From sequence record SRR20825006_2659: DNA of 47,861 nucleotides, one strand, 5' to 3'. Under the pieces are notes generated by a model. It searched no databases, was not told the origin of the DNA, and was given only the letters and a program-made list of their open reading frames with translations. Numbering within the stretch: the first letter of the stretch is position 1; each line of letters starts with the position of its first letter. Made by a program: the position numbers and the translations under genes. This document shows, piece after piece, positions 1,750 through 19,101 of the stretch.

Positions 1750-2457
1750 TTATTTATGCTGAACAGGCACAAGTTTATCGCCTTTCCATTGAAGTTCTTG
1801 TAAAGCCCCGTCAATCATTCGCACGGTACGGAAAGGATACTTCTTTACCAGCGCATAATCGTGAGTTACCATTAGTACGGCCATGCCTCGGTTGTTAATT
1901 TGCTTAAGAAGCTCCATAATGTTTTTACTAGCAACAGGGTCTAAGTTTCCCGTTGGCTCATCAGCGAGGAGAATCCGAGGCTCATTTGCTAAAGCGCGAG
2001 CAATAACCACACGTTGTTGCTCGCCACCAGAAAGTTCATCAGGCATATGCTTACGGCGATGACTAAGGCCAACCATGGTAAGCACTTCAATAACACGTTG
2101 TTTAACAAATTTGGGTTTTTCGCCAGTAACTTGTAATGCAAACGCTACATTGTCGAAAACGTCTCGATCTTGTAAAAGTTGGAAGTCTTGGAATACAATT
2201 CCTAGCCGACGACGTAGCATCGGAACTTCTTTTAAACTGATTTTATTTACTGGATAATCAGTAACTCTAACCGAACCCGAATCAGGTACAATATCTCTAT
2301 AAAGAAGCTTTAGGAAAGAGCTTTTACCTATTCCAGTGGCACCTATTAAATAGGTAAACTCACCATTATGGAGTTTAAAGTTGATATTCTTGAGAATCGG
2401 ACGATGCTCAAAATTCAAACTAACATTTCTAAGTTCTATTACTGCGGTGTCTGACAT
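1750..2457 (-). CDS. ftsE: Cell division ATP-binding protein FtsE
   Basis: Walker A GATGIGKS, LRRRLGIVFQDFQLL, LSGGEQQRV, LLADEPTGNLDP. Confidence 0.88.
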   Translation of the reverse strand: MSDTAVIELRNVSLNFEHRPILKNINFKLHNGEFTYLIGATGIGKSSFLKLLYRDIVPDSGSVRVTDYPVNKISLKEVPMLRRRLGIVFQDFQLLQDRDVFDNVAFALQVTGEKPKFVKQRVIEVLTMVGLSHRRKHMPDELSGGEQQRVVIARALANEPRILLADEPTGNLDPVASKNIMELLKQINNRGMAVLMVTHDYALVKKYPFRTVRMIDGALQELQWKGDKLVPVQHK

Positions 2458-3215
2458 CTAAGTACAATGGTTACTCTTGAGCTTTGTTCATCTGCATCTA
2501 GCAGTTCAAAGTCGCCATATTTGGCTACTAGATGATAGGAGGTTTGTTCCACAATTGACAACATTTCCTGCAAGGAATATATACGTTGTTCATGAACTTC
2601 TTTCAGTTCTTGAATCACTGTTTTCCCATCATCAGCTAATTCTTCAATCTCAAATTCGTTGTAATGCATTTTGTTCTGATGATCATAACGACTTGTTCTA
2701 AAAAAACGAAGATTTCCAGAGGTAGCTTCTTCATTATTTAAATAATCGACGGCTTCCATGGAGTTTTTTGGAGTCGAAAAATCGAAAATAAGAAGTCCAC
2801 CAGGCTTTAGAACTTTTTGGCACTGGTTGAGCATAGTTAATATGTCTTTCTCACTATGTAGATAATTCACACTATCAAAAAGAGAATAAATGGCGTCGAA
2901 TGAATCCTCAATATCGATATTCAGAAAATCCATTGGCCTAAATACTACGTTTACATCAGCGTTTTTGGCTTTTAATGCTGCTATTTCGACCATTTCTGGG
3001 GATAAATCAGTAGCCGTTATAAAATAGTAACCAAACTCATCAAGTGAGATGGCAACAGAACCCGTTCCACAGGCTAATTCTAATATCTTTTCAGGGTAGG
3101 GATGATGAAGCTGAAGAATCTCGTCTATATAATCCGCCCAAGAATCATAATCTACATCTTCCATCAAACGATCGTACAAAGGTGCTAACGAAGTATAAAT
3201 ATCGGATTTATTCAT
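2439..3215 (-). CDS. Class I SAM-dependent methyltransferase
   Basis: Motif I ILELACGTG, DLSPEM, FDSVNY, LKPGG; ATG at 3215 overlaps the pdxA stop (track uses an upstream TTG at 3221). Confidence 0.88.
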   Translation of the reverse strand: MNKSDIYTSLAPLYDRLMEDVDYDSWADYIDEILQLHHPYPEKILELACGTGSVAISLDEFGYYFITATDLSPEMVEIAALKAKNADVNVVFRPMDFLNIDIEDSFDAIYSLFDSVNYLHSEKDILTMLNQCQKVLKPGGLLIFDFSTPKNSMEAVDYLNNEEATSGNLRFFRTSRYDHQNKMHYNEFEIEELADDGKTVIQELKEVHEQRIYSLQEMLSIVEQTSYHLVAKYGDFELLDADEQSSRVTIVLRCQTPQ

Positions 3216-4203
3216 GAACAATCTTTTTGTGGGCTAGTTTTACTGCCAAGTTATACGCTTGCTTGAATGAGGAAGCGTCGGCAACACCATTTCCTGCTAT
3301 GTCAAAAGCAGTACCGTGATCTGGCGAGGTTCTGATAATTGGAAGTCCTGCTGTAAAGTTAACGCCGTTGCCAAAAGAAGCCAGTTTAAATGGAGCTAGG
3401 CCTTGGTCGTGATACATGGCAAGCACAGCATCATATTTTTCGTAGAGTTTCTGACCAAAAAAACCGTCAGCAGGGAAGGGGCCATCAACTTGAATACCTT
3501 CTTTTCTTGAGTTTGATATTGCTGGCTTAATAATTTCAATTTCTTCCATTCCAATCACTCCACCATCACCCGCATGTGGGTTAAGCCCAAGAACAGCAAT
3601 CCGCGGAGAAGGGATTAAAAAATCGTCAGTGAGGCTTTTATTCAGAACTTTTAGACGCTCAATGATAATTTTCTCAGTAATAGCATTGGCAACTTCTCGA
3701 ATAGGAATATGAACGGTCGTAAGCGCTACTCTCAAATTCTTATTTACAAGCATCATTAACACGGAGTCGGCATTTGCCTTTTCAGCAAGAAATTCGGTAT
3801 GGCCTGGGATTTTATATCCAGCAAGGTTAACAGCTTCTTTTGAGATTGGAGCGGTGACCATGGCACTAATCTTTTTGGATAAACAAAGATCGATGGCTCC
3901 CTCAATCGATTTCATTGCAACTAAACCGCTTTCCTTATTCTGTACGCCAGGAGTAGGCGTGAATGTGGTGTTAAATGAATTTGCATACACGTTAATAGTA
4001 GATGATTTTGCTTGCTGAAGTGCTGAAATCTCATTAAGCTCTATTGACAGACCAAGCAAGTCTTTATAGAATTCTAGAATATAGGTAGGAGCAATAACTA
4101 CAGGTTTAGATTGCGAAAAATCAATATCACTAAGGCCCTTGAGAATAATCTCAGGACCTATGCCATTACAATCTCCAAGTGATATGCCGATAGTTGGTTT
4201 CAT
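3208..4203 (-). CDS. pdxA: 4-hydroxythreonine-4-phosphate dehydrogenase PdxA
   Basis: GDCNGIGPEI, TAPISK, PGHTE, GLNPHAG, MYHDQG, RTSPDHGTAFDIAG. Confidence 0.96.
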   Translation of the reverse strand: MKPTIGISLGDCNGIGPEIILKGLSDIDFSQSKPVVIAPTYILEFYKDLLGLSIELNEISALQQAKSSTINVYANSFNTTFTPTPGVQNKESGLVAMKSIEGAIDLCLSKKISAMVTAPISKEAVNLAGYKIPGHTEFLAEKANADSVLMMLVNKNLRVALTTVHIPIREVANAITEKIIIERLKVLNKSLTDDFLIPSPRIAVLGLNPHAGDGGVIGMEEIEIIKPAISNSRKEGIQVDGPFPADGFFGQKLYEKYDAVLAMYHDQGLAPFKLASFGNGVNFTAGLPIIRTSPDHGTAFDIAGNGVADASSFKQAYNLAVKLAHKKIVHE

Positions 4204-13598: not shown

Positions 13599-13991
13599 CT
13601 ATTTCATTGAATGGATTCCAAACATATTGCCTTCAGTATCCGTTGCCAGAACCATGAACCCATACTCCGTTAGAGATGTTTTAGATTTAAAGACGTTCCC
13701 TCCAGCATTTACAATACGTGCTTCTTCGATACTGCAATCTTCGCTCATAAAATATACGATGGTGCTATTGTTACCTGCCTTAAAGCCATCCATCCTAACT
13801 AAAGCACCTGAAGCTCTGTTTTTAGATTCCAAATTGCTAGGGAAGAATAACATCTCCATACTGTCTTCTCCGATTTCTGGAGTTGGCAACGCATCAAGTT
13901 TAAGGTCGAATACGGTCTCATAGAATCTTTGGGCTCTATTTAAATCATCGACATAAATCTCGAACCAAACGACGGGGTTTTCATTTTTCAT
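13599..13991 (-). CDS. VOC family protein (glyoxalase/bleomycin-resistance-like)
   Basis: NPVVWFEIYVDDLNRAQRFYETVF ... DTEGNMFGIHS. Confidence 0.9.
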   Translation of the reverse strand: MKNENPVVWFEIYVDDLNRAQRFYETVFDLKLDALPTPEIGEDSMEMLFFPSNLESKNRASGALVRMDGFKAGNNSTIVYFMSEDCSIEEARIVNAGGNVFKSKTSLTEYGFMVLATDTEGNMFGIHSMK

Positions 13992-14508
13992 AAGCTAATT
14001 GTAAGTCTGATTTATTTTATTCTTAATACTGAAAGCTTAAGATGTAGAAAACGGGTTTTATTTCAAAATGGTAGACTAGTATCTATCATACCAGATATGA
14101 TTCTACAGGAAGAGGATGGGTAGGTTATACAAATTTCAAAAAATTATTTCTTTATATAAAAGAATCTAGATAGCTAACAAAGCAACGTTTCAAAGCCATA
14201 ACAAGAGGATGGTTATAAGGACCAAAAACCCGTGAATTCTTCAATTAGATTTCCCATTAACGGGTAATAGTCAATCAGTTACAAAGCGCTGCACCTTAGA
14301 ACTCCACACACAACATTCTTACTAATAAAGTATGCCATTCAACTTTACTAATGGAATGGGAAGTTTAATCTCGAAGAGTGGTAAAGAGGTATTCGCCCTG
14401 ATTAGATAGTCTTTTTAGATAGAAAAATTAGGCACTTAAACATCTTGAATAATTAAGTGTGATATAAAATATTGTTCCCGAAGAGTATAATCACATAAAA
14501 GAAATGTC

Positions 14509-14940
14509 ATGGGGAATATAAAAATCACAAAATATTTTAGATGGATTTTAGGTGCGGTATTAGCTGCAGCTGGAATCTTAAAAATCATAGATCCAGAGAA
14601 TATGATTGAGGTACTACTCTTTTTTGGAGTATACCCAGAAAGTACAGCTAAGTTTTTAGTGTACGCCGCTGCTACAACAGAAATTATACTCGCCATGTAC
14701 TTATTTAAACAAGTACAAAAGAAACTTATACACTTGCTTGTTGCACTGTTGTGCGGCTTTTTTTTGTTGATCGCTTTAGTTGGTTATAGCAACGGTTGGG
14801 AGTTTGCTTGTGGTTGTTTAGGACGTTTTTCTTTTGGGAGATTTGATTTGCAGATGGTGCTAAGAAATGCGGTTTTGGCAATAATGTCTGGTTGGATGTA
14901 CTACCAAACCAAGAAGGAAGTGAAGCTCGGAGTGAGCTAA
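14509..14940 (+). CDS. MauE/DoxX family redox-associated membrane protein
   Basis: About four TM segments; RWILG..AGILKIIDP, E-I-I-L-A, ACGCLG (CxC) and LRN motifs typical of MauE-like proteins. Confidence 0.85.
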   Translation: MGNIKITKYFRWILGAVLAAAGILKIIDPENMIEVLLFFGVYPESTAKFLVYAAATTEIILAMYLFKQVQKKLIHLLVALLCGFFLLIALVGYSNGWEFACGCLGRFSFGRFDLQMVLRNAVLAIMSGWMYYQTKKEVKLGVS

Positions 14941-14969
14941 CTAACAAACAATAACAAATGGAGATAATC

Positions 14970-15248
14970 ATGAAGATTAAGAATTATATCAATCAATTTG
15001 TAGCAATTTTAACTGTTGTTACTCTTGTAAGTGGATTCCAAATAAGCACTAACGATGGAATGGTTAATACTTTTGAATCAGTAATCGGTATTGAAGAAGC
15101 CTATGCTGGCCCTTGTGGTAATAGAGGATGTACCGGAAAGGAAGGGTTTTGTACAGCATATGTAGTTTTTGAAATAGGTGGAATTCAGGTAATAAGATAC
15201 TGCAAAGGTATAAAGAGGAATGATGACGATGTAATAGTCCAAATGTGA
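14970..15248 (+). CDS. Small secreted cysteine-rich peptide precursor (leader ending IEEAYA plus 46-aa four-Cys core)
   Basis: ATG at 14970 with GGAG 6 nt upstream (alternative ATG 14958); basic N-region, hydrophobic H-region, AYA|G cleavage-type site, core GPCGNRGCTGKEGFC...YCKG; followed by a strong hairpin. Confidence 0.8.
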   Translation: MKIKNYINQFVAILTVVTLVSGFQISTNDGMVNTFESVIGIEEAYAGPCGNRGCTGKEGFCTAYVVFEIGGIQVIRYCKGIKRNDDDVIVQM

Positions 15249-15255
15249 TGACTAA

Positions 15256-15286
15256 AATAAAGGCACCTTAAAAGGGTGCCTTTATT
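15256..15286 (+). terminator. Terminator or mRNA-stabilising stem-loop after the peptide gene
   Basis: Perfect 12-bp inverted repeat AATAAAGGCACC / GGTGCCTTTATT starting 7 nt after the stop codon. Confidence 0.8.
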
Positions 15287-15392
15287 AATCTAATCTTACG
15301 AATAGTTGAGCTAAGAGAAGACAAAGCTTCGAATCCATAAATAATATTGCTTTAGAATAATGAACAAAGTAAAAATATAAAATCATAGAGTT

Positions 15393-16385
15393 ATGAATAG
15401 AATTTACTGGTATATGGTAATAATAATATTGTTATTTAGCTCAAATCTTATGTCTCAAGAGCGACTTTATAATAATGTTGAACTCACTTTAGTAAAGGAC
15501 TTAGAATTAGCTGAATTTGGTATTTATGATCCAGATTTACTTTCTGTAAACGAACGAGGAGATATCGTAATGTTTGATTACGCTGAATATAAAATTGCAT
15601 ATGCTAGCGTTGACGATTTAGAGTTTGTGTTGTTTGATAAAGGAGGGCGCGGACGGGGGCCTGCTGAATTTCAGATGGTTATGGACTTAGAGCTTGATGA
15701 AGGTGGGAATATATACCTTGCAGATAGTGATAAAGGTACTGTTGTTCAATGGAATACTTCTGGAGAGTTTATTAAAGAGTTTAAGCCAAATAAACTTATG
15801 CCGGCACCTTCTAGGTTAACGAGATGTTCTAATGGAAATTTATATGTGCTTTCTCAACAACATAGCAAAAAAGGCATATTCCATAGAGTGAGTGAAGAAG
15901 GGAAGCTACTCAATTCTTTTTTTAAGATAAAAAGCTTTGAAAAGCGCTTTGCTTATTATACTGATGGTAGATTAAGCTGTGATGAGAATGAATACCTGTT
16001 TCATGCCCCTCTGTATATAAATGAAATAAAGAAATTTAATACCAAAGGGGAGATAATATTTGAAATTCCTGTTTATGGTTTTGAAGAGAATGAGAACATT
16101 ATGATAAAAGACGGTCGCTTTTATGAACCTGCTCCAGATGTTAGAAGAGCTACAGGTGATATTTTTGTGCGAAATGGAAAAATGATTGTCGCCTATTCAG
16201 GAAGAAAAGATATGAATTCTCAACTATTGGATGTGTACTCCTCAGAAGATGGTAAGTATGAGTACTCAATTGAAGTACCGTATATCTTTAATGAAGTTGC
16301 AGTAACTAGTAAAAACATCATTCTTTTTAGAGAGGATACTAATGGCGAGTACTACGTAACAGTGTATAGTTACAGTGGTATTTAA
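15393..16385 (+). CDS. Secreted 6-bladed beta-propeller protein (NHL/TolB-like)
   Basis: Signal peptide ..SNLMS|Q; GRGRGPAEF motif; blade repeats such as DEGGNIYLAD..GTVVQWNTSGEFIKEF. Confidence 0.8.
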   Translation: MNRIYWYMVIIILLFSSNLMSQERLYNNVELTLVKDLELAEFGIYDPDLLSVNERGDIVMFDYAEYKIAYASVDDLEFVLFDKGGRGRGPAEFQMVMDLELDEGGNIYLADSDKGTVVQWNTSGEFIKEFKPNKLMPAPSRLTRCSNGNLYVLSQQHSKKGIFHRVSEEGKLLNSFFKIKSFEKRFAYYTDGRLSCDENEYLFHAPLYINEIKKFNTKGEIIFEIPVYGFEENENIMIKDGRFYEPAPDVRRATGDIFVRNGKMIVAYSGRKDMNSQLLDVYSSEDGKYEYSIEVPYIFNEVAVTSKNIILFREDTNGEYYVTVYSYSGI

Positions 16386-16456
16386 TTTTCATTATGCAAT
16401 AGAATAATAATTGCATACAGAATATAATTAAACATTAAGATAGGGTGAGGTTAAGC

Positions 16457-17497
16457 ATGAAAAAAGATCTTCTAATATTCGTAGGACTTATTGTTTGGTC
16501 ACTCTTTGTAGTAAACAATACCACCGCACAAAATATTGAAAACTCAACAATGAAAAGAGAGTTTAAAGAGGTTATTAAAGAGGAGTGGAGGTTTGTTCCT
16601 TCTGAATTTGAATTATTCCGAGCAGAAATTTACACTATAAACAATAATCATAGTGCCTTGTTTGTGTTTGACTATACCAAGAAAAATTTATTTAAACTGT
16701 CTATAGAAGGTAGCGAAATTGTGGATATGGAAACTATTGGGAACGGGCAAGGGTCTGGACCTGGGGAGTTTAGAAACCCAACTGATATGTGTGTTTCTTT
16801 AACTTCAAAAGGAGAGAAGCTAGTCCTGATAGATTCTGATTTGGCGAGAGTTTCCATCTGGGATGTAACTTCAGGGGAATTTGAAAAGAGCTTTAACCCA
16901 AAGAAATTTTCACCATCAAGGGTAAGCTGTACTCCCAACAAAATATTCTTATATAATGCAACAGGATCAAAGAATGGAGATTACCTAGTTTATAATTTTG
17001 ACAAAGAATTAATAGCAGGAATAAAGGATAATAGAAAGAAGAGGAACACTTTTTTAGATGCAGGTGAAATAGTAGCAGACGATTCGTCACTATTTTTTTC
17101 ATCAAAAGGTAGGTCCGAACTAAAAAAATTTAGTCTTATAGATAATGCGTTTGAGCTGAGTAATAGTTTGGTTGAAGCTGTTGTTGAAAATAAGACAGAT
17201 ATCAAAGAGGATAAAAAAACAAGAACTGAGAAAAGAAGCAAAGATTTCAAGTACCAAACAAGGGGTATTGGAGAGTATGGGGATTATATACTTGTTTTAT
17301 ATTCAGGTGAGAAGCACGGGCATGGAAATACCATCGATTTTTACAATAAACGTACATTAGTCTATGAGTTTTCTGTACAACTAGAGTTTTGGAGTATTTC
17401 TATGGATGTTCAAGGAGACAGAATTATTCTAGACTCTTACTACAAAGATAGAAAAGAGTACATGTTTATGGCGTACAAAATAGAGTTGGTTGAGTAG
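16457..17497 (+). CDS. Secreted 6-bladed beta-propeller protein (NHL/TolB-like)
   Basis: ATG at 16457; signal peptide ..NTTA|Q; IGNGQGSGPGEFRNP motif; IDSDLARVSIWD..GEF blade. Confidence 0.8.
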   Translation: MKKDLLIFVGLIVWSLFVVNNTTAQNIENSTMKREFKEVIKEEWRFVPSEFELFRAEIYTINNNHSALFVFDYTKKNLFKLSIEGSEIVDMETIGNGQGSGPGEFRNPTDMCVSLTSKGEKLVLIDSDLARVSIWDVTSGEFEKSFNPKKFSPSRVSCTPNKIFLYNATGSKNGDYLVYNFDKELIAGIKDNRKKRNTFLDAGEIVADDSSLFFSSKGRSELKKFSLIDNAFELSNSLVEAVVENKTDIKEDKKTRTEKRSKDFKYQTRGIGEYGDYILVLYSGEKHGHGNTIDFYNKRTLVYEFSVQLEFWSISMDVQGDRIILDSYYKDRKEYMFMAYKIELVE

Positions 17498-17596
17498 GGT
17501 TTAGTGTTTTAAGAATAGATGCACACCTAGTGAGTGATTAGTTAAGAGTGAAGCAATCTCAATTGATGTTACTTAAATACAGGTAGAATAGAGAAA

Positions 17597-18175
17597 GTGA
17601 GCCACATTACCTTGAAAAGAGCTATTGGATTAGTGTTATTTGTTTCAATAACCTATTCGATTGTAATGGTAAAGCCTTACAAAGTAATGACAAACTCTAT
17701 GGCGGATGTTATTCAACCAAAGGATTATGTGCTGATTTATAAAAATAAAAGTAATGGTGACTTTGAAAAAGGTGACATAGTAGCGTTCCATAAATCAGTA
17801 GAAGATTCAATTACATTTATAAAGAGGATTGCAGCAGTTCCTGGTGATACAATTCATGCTTATCGGTATGAATTAGTTATTGCTGATAGAACTATTCCGC
17901 ATGATCCAATTTTTGAGATGTTAGTTACCACTGATGAAGACAACGAAATGGATTATTCCTCTAGAAGGTACTTTGAGTTTCTCATCCAGCAAATGGATAG
18001 AAAAGATAGCCTAATTCTACAGTATTCTAATATTATCGAAAGTGGAAATGGGCTTGTAGTTCCAGATGGCGTGTTCTTTATGGTGGGCGATAATGCCTAT
18101 GAAAGCATGGATAGTCGATTTTGGGGGTTTATACCCAAAGAGCAAGTCCTAGGTGAAGTATTCGCAATATTTTAA
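17597..18175 (+). CDS. lepB: Signal peptidase I (S26), cluster-associated paralog
   Basis: One N-terminal TM; catalytic Ser in NSM; GDIVAF; catalytic Lys in FIKRIAAVPGD; box E FMVGDN..SMDSRFWG; GTG start. Confidence 0.9.
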   Translation: MSHITLKRAIGLVLFVSITYSIVMVKPYKVMTNSMADVIQPKDYVLIYKNKSNGDFEKGDIVAFHKSVEDSITFIKRIAAVPGDTIHAYRYELVIADRTIPHDPIFEMLVTTDEDNEMDYSSRRYFEFLIQQMDRKDSLILQYSNIIESGNGLVVPDGVFFMVGDNAYESMDSRFWGFIPKEQVLGEVFAIF

Positions 18176-18316
18176 AGAAAATTTGATTTTTATAGATAAT
18201 TATATTTCATTAGATGTAGGGTAAGTAAAAACAACACAAAAGAGTAGCACCTAATTTGGAAGGACAATAACTATAGCTTAGGGTAAATGTAAATTTATAA
18301 CCTAAAATTTAGAATT

Positions 18317-18655
18317 ATGACACCACCAATAAATGATGCAGTAAATTTTGCCATTCAAAACTTAAACCATATGTATTCGGTCGAGGATTGGGCCAAAGAA
18401 TACGGGTATTCGAACGCTAAGTCTTTTTCCAAATACTTCAGAAATCATTTTCAAAAACGGCCATCGAAAGTATTAATTCAACTCAAAATTAAACACGCTT
18501 TAAAACTACTGAGCTCAAAAGATTGCCAAAAGAATTACTGTATTGCACAGGAGATTGGGCTTCCCGATGAACAGGCTTTATACAAATTTTTTAAATATCA
18601 CACAGGATATAGTCCTAGTGATTTTAAAGATAACCTGCATCGATATAGAGGCTAG
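18317..18655 (+). CDS. Stand-alone AraC-family helix-turn-helix protein
   Basis: 112 aa; SVEDWAKEYGYS..SFSKYFRNHF..P and IAQEIGL.D...LYKFFKYHTGYSPSDF twin-HTH pattern; no sensor domain. Confidence 0.8.
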   Translation: MTPPINDAVNFAIQNLNHMYSVEDWAKEYGYSNAKSFSKYFRNHFQKRPSKVLIQLKIKHALKLLSSKDCQKNYCIAQEIGLPDEQALYKFFKYHTGYSPSDFKDNLHRYRG

Positions 18656-18774
18656 TAAACCTATTGAAGTACTAACATATGCATGGCCTATTGCCAAATG
18701 AGTGCATTGCAAGAATATAGAGTTTCAGAATTACCTCAACCTATAAGTATCAGATTAAAAGGCTTAATCGTTGT

Positions 18775-19101
18775 TTAGCTTGATACGACCTTGAGTCCTA
18801 CAATAGAGCTTACTAGAGTTACTAAGAAAAAGATTCTCCAAAAAGTAACAGGATCTTTAAACACAAAAATACCCATTAAAACAGTTCCGACCGCGCCGAT
18901 ACCAGTCCAAACTGCATAGGCCGTACCAATGGGTAAGCTCTGAGTTGCTTTTATAAGAAGCATCATACTAACTATAAGGCATACAAAGAAAGCTCCATAC
19001 CACCAGTATACATCATTTCCAGTGGCTTCTTTGGCTTTACCAAGGCTAGAGGCAAAACCAACTTCAAATAATCCAGCAATAATCAAAAGAATCCAATTCA
19101 T
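18775..19101 (-). CDS. sugE: SMR family small multidrug/guanidinium exporter (SugE/Gdx-like)
   Basis: MNWILLIIAGLFEVG (conserved TM1 Glu), LPIGTAYAVWTGIGAVG, GLK. Confidence 0.85.
   Translation of the reverse strand: MNWILLIIAGLFEVGFASSLGKAKEATGNDVYWWYGAFFVCLIVSMMLLIKATQSLPIGTAYAVWTGIGAVGTVLMGIFVFKDPVTFWRIFFLVTLVSSIVGLKVVSS

Follow-up and report, generated by a model that had tools for sequence, protein, structure and literature searches.

A candidate exported disulfide peptide and its cognate beta-propeller in a conserved gene cluster of Balneolaceae

Organization of the gene cluster

The window analyzed here is a 47,861-nucleotide stretch of DNA from sequence record SRR20825006_2659, and the carrier of the cluster described below is a marine Balneola-type bacterium. 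Within positions 14509–18655 the window holds six co-oriented open reading frames (ORFs), verified at their coordinates, which encode a MauE-like membrane protein, a small cysteine-rich precursor peptide, two beta-propeller proteins (propellers 1 and 2), a type I signal peptidase (SPase I) of family S26 and an AraC-type regulator (Table 1). The central observation is that the variable core of the peptide and the propeller encoded directly downstream of it are exchanged between strains as a cassette and co-vary across loci. The gene identities given in the initial annotation were borne out by the ORFs and by family matches, including the ACGCLG motif of the membrane protein, the four cysteines of the peptide, the GxGPxEF motif of the propellers and the Ser/Lys dyad of the S26 protein. 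Its statement that mau, radical SAM, YcaO and lanthipeptide genes are lacking also held, as Pfam and NCBIfam scans found none in the cluster or its flanks.

Table 1. Features of the peptide-propeller cluster (positions in the window; TM, transmembrane segment).
Feature	Position	Strand	Characteristics or basis
MauE/DoxX-type four-TM membrane protein, contains ACGCLG	14509..14940	+	Pfam MauE
Precursor leader, 46 codons	14970..15107	+	Signal-like n- and h-regions, near-invariant LVSGFQ, spacer, GIEEAYA
Precursor core G47-M92 and stop codon, type A	15108..15248	+	C-x4-C-x6-C-x16-C
Strain-variable cassette	15117..16517	+	Core after GPC, propeller 1, start of propeller 2 ORF
14-bp stem-loop just 3' of peptide gene	15256..15286	+	Folding energy compared with shuffles
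Propeller 1, six-bladed NHL type, predicted exported	15393..16385	+	AlphaFold2, Foldseek, clade A of propeller tree
Propeller 2, NHL type, clade B, predicted exported	16445..17497	+	96% identity to G001 propeller
Type I signal peptidase S26, membrane-anchored, extra paralog	17597..18175	+	TIGR02227 1.3e-33
AraC/XylS-type regulator, DNA-binding domain alone, 112 aa	18317..18655	+	HTH_18 9.3e-15

The precursor peptide has a conserved leader and a hypervariable core

The peptide ORF runs from 14958 or 14970 to 15248, and the second ATG (14970), which is the start used by most of the homologs, gives a precursor of 92 amino acids. No Pfam or NCBIfam family matched the peptide, its profile had no match in the Protein Data Bank (PDB) at E values up to 10, and the best scores of a Protein Atlas search (0.80–0.85) were all below the lead threshold of 0.9. 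A search of 5.8 billion proteins identified 18 homologs among 19 candidates, and the few named ones are from Balneolaceae or Gracilimonas. The peptide alignment (A1) shows a signal-like start (MKIKNYIN) and hydrophobic stretch, then the near-invariant LVSGFQ, ~20 residues of spacer, and the invariant residues A44-Y45-A46-G47-P48-C49 and G53-C54. All four cysteines are conserved, and the rest of the C-terminal part is hypervariable, with a mean pairwise identity of 0.39 for the core compared with 0.63 for the leader, i.e. the 46 residues before the junction (17 peptides, 136 pairs). The type A core present in the window has no tryptophan. The A-x-A just ahead of the conserved GPCG reads as a signal-peptidase-I site, and AYA precedes GPC in all 17 intact peptides (the window and the 16 loci described below). 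The presumed cut lies ~23 residues past the hydrophobic segment, which is not the normal geometry of a signal peptide.

The stem-loop just 3' of the peptide gene has a folding energy of -19.9 kcal/mol (z = -5.9), and none of 200 shuffled sequences folds as well. All 17 peptide genes have a stem of about 9–18 bp within ~60 nt of their 3' end, with a sequence that differs between loci. Such an element fits a terminator/attenuator or a transcript stabilizer, either of which would raise the peptide transcript over that of the accessory genes.

Gene order is conserved in Balneolaceae

When one genome of each prokaryote species was scanned with the peptide motif, 16 loci were obtained, each from Balneola, Balneolaceae or Gracilimonas, and the six window proteins were then mapped on them. 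The gene order MauE-peptide-propeller(s)-S26 with an AraC-type helix-turn-helix (HTH) protein recurs in these loci, which were found through the peptide alone. A propeller lies directly 3' of the peptide in all 16, and MauE lies directly 5' in 15; of the copy in L010 only the C-terminal part remains, and L020 begins within the locus. Fourteen loci have S26, the exceptions being L005, which is cut by the end of its contig and resumes on L020 in the same assembly, and L010, which lacks the gene but has a second full locus with S26 (L016) on the same chromosome. An AraC-type HTH gene accompanies 15 of the 16 loci, lying on the downstream side in the closest ones and on the upstream side in those that are more distant. 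This arrangement is far beyond chance, and the co-location of homologs in other genomes that would be expected from the system proposed in the initial annotation was found in these 16 loci as well as in later ones. The peptide has a patchy distribution, being present in 18 of the 151 genomes sampled from the family and in 7 of the 14 from the same genus.

The core and the downstream propeller form an exchangeable cassette

The nearest genome, G001, has 72% of sampled words in common with the window. Its MauE, S26 and AraC proteins are near-identical to those of the window and the flanking genes are identical. The G001 peptide carries the same leader as in the window followed by a different core, C-x4-C-x6-C-x13-C with ILWG..R.C, designated type B. 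G001 is without propeller 1, and outside the signal segment its single propeller has 96% identity to propeller 2. A blastn comparison resulted in ~98% identity up to 15116 and from 16518, with 1401 bases between these breakpoints in the window compared with 258 in G001. The first breakpoint is the last base of the GPC cysteine codon, and the 3' end of the cassette takes in 24 codons at the start of the ORF listed for propeller 2 (from GTG at 16445), within the signal segment. A marine-metagenome contig carries exactly the G001-type joint and another sequencing run has the window-type arrangement across 14400–17314, indicating that both alleles exist in nature.

To compare peptides and propellers, the cores were assigned by eye to types A, A', B and C using nothing but the peptide sequences, and the propeller tree was built separately. 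The maximum-likelihood tree of 24 propellers from these loci has four clades, three with 100/100 support and clade A with 85/89. Each propeller directly following an intact peptide is found in the clade matching the core type (16 of 16; six A, two A', five B and three C), and four further pairs (L092–L095) fit by best BLAST hit, giving 20 of 20 pairs from loci that include kin and are not independent. This perfect co-variation between core type and the directly downstream propeller is the new observation of this work and, at the level of sequence, strongly supports the link between peptide and propeller put forward in the initial annotation. The modules also occur in mixed combinations: L017 combines C and B, L014 has A', a decayed C core and then a B-clade propeller, L015 has B together with an orphan A' propeller, and the window has A together with an orphan B propeller. 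Because the modules are shuffled among genomes, the pairing does not simply reflect shared ancestry of whole loci.

The predicted cognate of type A cores is propeller 1. Propeller 2 has no matching type B core in the window and is therefore an orphan there. The two propellers, which the initial annotation had treated as like parts, are thereby not equivalent, the first matching the core of the window and the second belonging to the type B clade. Further orphan propellers are present in L007, L013 and L015, and the orphan propeller 2 of L006 has an in-frame stop. Decay is also evident from a leaderless core remnant with stops in L014, a propeller-leader chimera with a frameshift in L020 and the truncated MauE of L010. 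Genome G149 (L089 and L090) has several propellers of clades A and A' along with S26 and AraC genes or fragments, with no peptide or MauE in the regions examined (one of 18 kb and one of 10 kb that runs to the end of its contig), and these islands are possible protection-only loci. The cluster as a whole displays the marks of a polymorphic module, with a conserved leader, a breakpoint at the junction to the variable end, a co-varying downstream gene and orphan modules.

The propellers resemble six-bladed NHL domains

Both propellers have an N-terminal signal-like segment and the GxGPxEF motif. Single-sequence Pfam searches gave weak matches only (NHL 0.048), and a profile of 48 propeller relatives (A2) matched NHL domains in PDB entries of TRIM71, TRIM2 and Brat with E values of 5e-35 to 1e-18, those of TRIM71 and TRIM2 at 5e-35 to 8e-32. 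A single-sequence AlphaFold2 model of propeller 1 was poor (pLDDT 44) and an alignment-based model was used instead, which has an all-beta fold with a pLDDT of 94.9. Foldseek matched this model to six-bladed NHL propellers with a probability of 1.00 and target-normalized TM-scores of up to 0.78; the top matches were TRIM2 and Brat, and 4raa, an exported protein of Bacteroides fragilis, was at rank 33. The PDB and Foldseek matches include the extracellular domain of the kinase PknD, and the family profile also matched peptidylglycine amidating lyase (4.7e-8) and virginiamycin B lyase (0.0036). Among the 48 relatives, 15 matched DUF5128 (PF17170) and five TolB_like (PF15869) in Pfam, whereas the window propellers had no match to these two models at E values up to 0.1. 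The SGL lactonase family was touched by nine of the 48 relatives and the Vgb lyase family by one.

Invariant columns of the propeller family are Gly-87, Gly-89, Asp-280, Tyr-282 and Tyr-289, and near-invariant columns are Pro-90, Glu-92, Asp-111, Pro-139 and Gly-192. The propellers have no transmembrane or signaling domain, and the cluster has no partner sensor gene. A complex prediction of propeller 1 (residues 22–330) with the core (residues 47–92), run without using alignments, gave a score of 0.02, which speaks neither for nor against a complex.

A MauE-like protein and an extra signal peptidase accompany the peptide

The MauE-like protein matches Pfam MauE (PF07291) over model positions 5–127 of 128 (2.8e-17; 63.7 bits compared with a cut-off of 27), with a DoxX match just below the cut-off. 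Its CGC motif is invariant in all 19 cluster-linked MauE proteins and is positioned in the loop between TM3 and TM4, which is predicted to be periplasmic by the positive-inside rule, as read from the sequence without a tool. The putative role as a disulfide helper that the initial annotation had assigned to this protein is consistent with the synteny and the invariant CGC.

In the comparison with signal peptidase I of the S26A kind (TIGR02227, PF10502), the S26 protein scores 116.2 bits with TIGR02227 (cut-off 47). The motifs SM, KR and GDNxxxSMDSRxWGF and a hydrophobic N-terminus are present in 15 of 15 cluster orthologs, and the catalytic lysine aligns with the IKR of Escherichia coli LepB. 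Apart from the S26 gene in its cluster, G001 carries a second, separate one with an open frame of 374 aa, to which the window protein aligns in two short stretches only (35% identity over 60 residues and 34% over 38). Since the separate S26 of G001 matches only in these short stretches, the S26 of the cluster is considered an extra, divergent paralog.

Every S26-bearing locus among the 16 has the AYA junction, and in L094 and L095, which also bear S26, the junctions are AFA and VYA, respectively. L092 and L093, with no S26 in the DNA region examined and no known copy elsewhere in their genomes, have the junctions FWGPGPC and GRMGPC, which are not small-x-small, and much longer leaders. The presence of S26 appears to track the small-x-small junction, a correlation that draws on two related negatives and has an exception in L068, whose leader is of the spacer type although S26 is absent within 8 kb. 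The peptide genes of L092 (6332–6775, minus strand) and L093 (5747–6130, minus strand) encode a type A-like core behind a leader of ~80–100 residues and come from relatives with genomes of 1.7–1.8 Mb; MauE is likewise absent from the DNA region examined.

Peptide-propeller pairs in distant Bacteroidota

The propeller profile, at E values up to 1e-25, matched 44 of 401 sampled genomes of the phylum and 25 of 61 in the family of the window, and 20 of the more distant propeller places were taken for locus analysis. For 13 of the 23 distant propellers, a short ORF on the same strand that has a signal-like start and four or more cysteines lies no more than 420 bases upstream, compared with 7 of 89 other long ORFs in the same DNA, for which most such ORFs look spurious. 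Several of the distant peptides keep the C-x4-C-x6-C framework, and the peptide of L062 is similar to type B and has an ordinary signal peptide, which ends next to the core. Analogous cysteine-rich peptides beside homologous propellers, a further expectation from the initial annotation, are thus present in distant Bacteroidota as well. MauE was found in four of the 20 distant loci (three verified by Pfam at 2e-18 to 2e-21), and a hidden Markov model (HMM) search found S26 in none of the 20. As both are often missing from the distant loci, the universal unit is the peptide-propeller pair, with MauE and S26 as lineage-specific additions. One locus with peptide, propeller and MauE, L061, also encodes a thioredoxin-like protein with CGSC (weak AhpC/TSA match, 0.011) and a Wzy_C-TPR membrane protein without an S26 domain (2255–4138).

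The NVEALA peptides and the TolB_like and DUF5128 propellers beside them in Bacteroidota are curated families with no assigned function. NVEALA (PF14055) was over its cut-off in one of the 401 sampled genomes, G032, with seven copies over the cut-off among eight matches, and the comparison with NVEALA loci rests on this one genome. In the G032 peptides, a signal-like start and a spacer precede N[VI]EALA and a cysteine-containing core, and the peptides are encoded directly upstream of TolB_like or DUF5128 propellers. A comparison by eye of the A1 and A3 alignments and the gene maps shows the same architecture in the window peptide, i.e. a signal-like segment, a spacer, an xEAxA junction and a cysteine core, in a gene directly upstream of a six-bladed propeller. 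S26 is present in both, standalone in the window and fused to Wzy_C/TPR in one locus of G032, whereas an HMM search found no MauE in the G032 loci. The fusion protein of G032 (L086, 1181–3886, minus strand) has 901 residues comprising Wzy_C, which is O-antigen-ligase-like, TPR and peptidase S26 (1.8e-27) and adjoins NVEALA peptides and a four-propeller array. Such Wzy_C-TPR neighbors raise the possibility that some peptides are glycosylated or otherwise handled at the membrane.

At the sequence level no such relationship was detected. The window peptide and 14 other cysteine-rich peptides had no match to PF14055 at E values up to 5, an hhalign comparison of A1 with seven true NVEALA peptides gave a probability of 1.7%, and a Protein Atlas neighbor with 14% NVEALA members scored 0.80, which is a lead only. 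The resemblance to NVEALA loci noted in the initial annotation is therefore upheld for the architecture and not for sequence homology. Its proposal of a dedicated signal peptidase is favored by correlation only, from the extra paralog, the invariant AYA-G, the S26-less L092 and L093 with their different junctions, and the S26 fusion beside NVEALA peptides.

Regulator, flanking genes and sequence features of the region

The AraC-type protein matches HTH_AraC (5.4e-7) in addition to HTH_18 and contains a double HTH. With 112 residues it has no N-terminal ligand-binding or dimerization domain, indicating a regulator of the HTH-only kind. The genes flanking the cluster encode a pyridoxal phosphate (PLP) decarboxylase, a Ble-like/VOC protein, an SMR pump and a rhodanese. 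The rhodanese was considered as a partner of the DoxX-type protein and dropped, being conserved in the flank of the closest genomes only. The 517 bp upstream of MauE (13992–14508) contain no convincing ORF; in the more distant loci an AraC gene is located upstream.

A search of 13900–18800 against Rfam gave no match at E values up to 1. A sigma-70 promoter and terminator scan, which is ill-suited to Bacteroidota promoters, found 18 sites compared with 20.2 expected in shuffles. The G+C content of 14001–18000 is 0.335–0.339 compared with about 0.35–0.43 over most of the window, and the GC skew is strongly positive (0.16–0.29), both being compatible with an accessory island or with mere coding-strand bias. 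In sequencing run X6, taken by guess to be RNA, a short contig covers 15033–15219, corresponding to only the core-coding part of the peptide gene, with higher contig depth than other pieces. At 18218, ~100 nt 5' of the AraC gene, the same run has a loose end that resembles a cDNA template-switch adaptor. Neither expression nor transcript ends can be read from contigs, and these two features are a hint only.

Discussion

The gene content, synteny, leader/core architecture, cassette exchange and co-variation reported here suggest a polymorphic, Sec-exported, disulfide-bonded peptide of toxin-like character, with the cognate periplasmic propeller as its immunity protein or binding partner. We hold this reading tentatively, judging it to fall just short of probable. 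The precursor would be directed to the periplasm through Sec by its N-terminal signal-like segment, where the four cysteines would be oxidized with help of the MauE-like protein and its CGC motif. The membrane-anchored extra SPase I would cut after A-Y-A46 to give a 46-residue core starting with GPCG, and the Sec-exported propeller from the directly downstream gene would bind its own core type specifically. The core would most likely be a bacteriocin-like toxin and the propeller a periplasmic immunity or holding protein, which could shield the producer while the toxin is in transit and its kin from incoming toxin. Propeller 2 may then be an orphan immunity gene that was kept for protection from the type B core of sister strains. 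The operon would be under the control of the HTH-only AraC protein, and the hairpin 3' of the peptide gene could set a high ratio of peptide to accessory transcript. A toxin is favored because of the conserved leader, the breakpoint at the junction, the cognate downstream gene, the orphan and decayed modules, the propeller-only islands and the patchy distribution.

Several observations weigh against a toxin with a propeller as its immunity protein. The cores are neutral to acidic, as counted from their sequences, whereas bacteriocin peptides are usually cationic. No outer-membrane route by which the peptide might leave the cell is encoded in the cluster, and a propeller of ~330 residues is an unusual immunity protein for a 46-residue peptide. 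The maturation genes are not universal, as is seen from the distant loci, and L068 (genome G249) has a spacer-type leader yet no S26 or MauE within 8 kb. The matches of the relatives to SGL and Vgb make an enzymatic propeller possible. The genetic signatures, moreover, fit a non-toxic recognition pair nearly as well.

In such a pair the core-propeller complex would serve self or kin recognition, signaling, adhesion or surface assembly, and the polymorphism would represent recognition types. Co-variation, cassette exchange and orphan modules are accommodated equally by this explanation, the cores are neutral or acidic mini-proteins and not cationic membrane-active peptides, and NHL propellers such as those matched here (TRIM2, Brat and the PknD extracellular domain) are typically ligand-binding platforms. 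The lack of a transmembrane or signaling domain in the propellers and of a sensor gene in the cluster speaks against it, and the peptide-less islands with propellers are easier to explain as protection than as recognition, and we regard it as unlikely, though a serious contender. A propeller acting as a type-specific maturation factor, either an enzyme or a folding or export chaperone, in an unusual pathway resembling those of ribosomally synthesized and post-translationally modified peptides (RiPPs) seems more improbable still. Six-bladed propellers include peptide-acting enzymes, and the amidating lyase and Vgb are among the fold or Pfam matches, as is SGL among the relatives; a precursor gene followed by a modifier gene is also common in RiPP clusters. 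Known propeller enzymes, however, have metal or catalytic sites of the His/Cys/Ser/Lys type, and the window family has invariant Asp and Tyr and a near-invariant Glu with no conserved set of His, Cys, Ser or Lys. Orphan propellers, too, persist without any substrate gene.

The adjacency of MauE, a small cysteine-rich protein and a propeller also recalls methylamine dehydrogenase, in which the propeller would be the large subunit and the peptide a disulfide-rich quinone small subunit assembled with the assistance of MauE. To our knowledge, MauE is known genetically only from the maturation of the disulfide-rich small subunit of this enzyme, whose large subunit is a seven-bladed beta-propeller. 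A tryptophan-derived quinone is impossible in the type A core as it has no tryptophan, the core is hypervariable, no gene of mauA, mauB, mauD or mauG type is present in or beside the cluster, and the propeller model matches the six-bladed NHL type. An enzyme of this kind is very improbable and was ruled out by the tryptophan-free, hypervariable core. That the genes are unrelated neighbors and the small ORF is not a gene has a negligible probability. Only the absence of a curated family for the peptide points that way, and it is refuted by the synteny, with 18 homologs sharing an invariant motif, the gene order kept in 16 loci and the enrichment of cysteine-rich ORFs upstream of distant propellers over the control.

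Several known systems resemble the cluster in part. CdiA-CT/CdiI, Rhs and colicin-type loci share the conserved N-terminal and variable C-terminal parts, the recombination breakpoint at the junction, the cognate downstream gene and the orphan or decayed modules, but deliver a large toxin domain, whereas the window would encode a disulfide mini-protein of 40–50 residues with predicted Sec export, putative toxicity and a periplasmic propeller as partner. The methylamine dehydrogenase maturation system with MauE and MauD similarly places a MauE protein beside a small exported cysteine-rich protein and a propeller; it differs from the window in the presence of MauA, MauB, MauD and MauG, in its conserved tryptophan and in the number of blades and variability of the core discussed above. 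The extra S26 paralog in the operon of its presumed substrate is paralleled by SipW for TasA/TapA in Bacillus subtilis. SipW is a Ser/His ER-type (endoplasmic reticulum) signal peptidase, in contrast to the S26 of the window, which keeps the Ser/Lys dyad and whose presumed cut is distant from the hydrophobic segment. Virginiamycin B lyase inactivates a peptide antibiotic and is an example of a propeller fold that protects against a peptide, as proposed here; its match to the window family is weak by profile, and a conserved catalytic set is not evident in the family.

The bacteroidetocins (class IIf) are the nearest tested precedent for a private disulfide helper. The mature peptides have ~42 amino acids and four cysteines, and their activity depends both on a neighboring multi-TM (five-TM) protein and on a thiol oxidoreductase, with neither giving immunity; Bacteroides is said there to be without general disulfide machinery (PMC6671954). 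Bacteroidetocins have a 15-aa GG leader, a C39-peptidase ABC exporter and regions without an obvious immunity gene (PMC6671954). The likeness to the window is the four-cysteine peptide beside a private disulfide helper; the window leader differs in being of the Sec type and ending with AYA, and the cluster has S26 and no ABC transporter. The word propeller is absent from the text of that paper (PMC6671954), and a paper on RiPP mining in Bacteroidales does not mention propellers, MauE, NVEALA or signal peptidase (PMC10352776). A literature search, whose coverage did not extend to subscription journals, found no description of this system or of the NVEALA/propeller loci. Exported disulfide peptides with a protective cognate are already known as a general kind; the combination of a propeller partner, an internal AYA site predicted to be cut by a private SPase I and a MauE helper appears to be an undescribed architecture.

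A broader proposal is that cassettes of a cysteine-rich exported peptide and a cognate six-bladed propeller, the NVEALA loci included, constitute one phylum-wide polymorphic interbacterial class in Bacteroidota. The propeller would in this case be the specificity partner of a disulfide mini-protein, as immunity protein or recognition receptor, and some lineages would have added a private SPase I cutting an internal xEAxA-type junction and a MauE-type CxC protein for disulfide chemistry. We consider this possible but doubtful as a whole; with the NVEALA loci, there is a fair chance of defining such a class.

If correct, these interpretations would provide a function for NVEALA-like peptides, for the DUF5128, TolB_like and NHL propellers of Bacteroidota and for cluster-linked MauE proteins. 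They would also describe a new architecture of bacterial peptide warfare or recognition, in which Sec export is combined with a private SPase acting at an internal site and a propeller partner, and MauE would gain a second and more tractable class of substrates beyond methylamine dehydrogenase. The natural co-varying peptide-propeller pairs, of at least four types, are a ready specificity set for binding studies, and the two alleles within one species open the way to direct competition tests.

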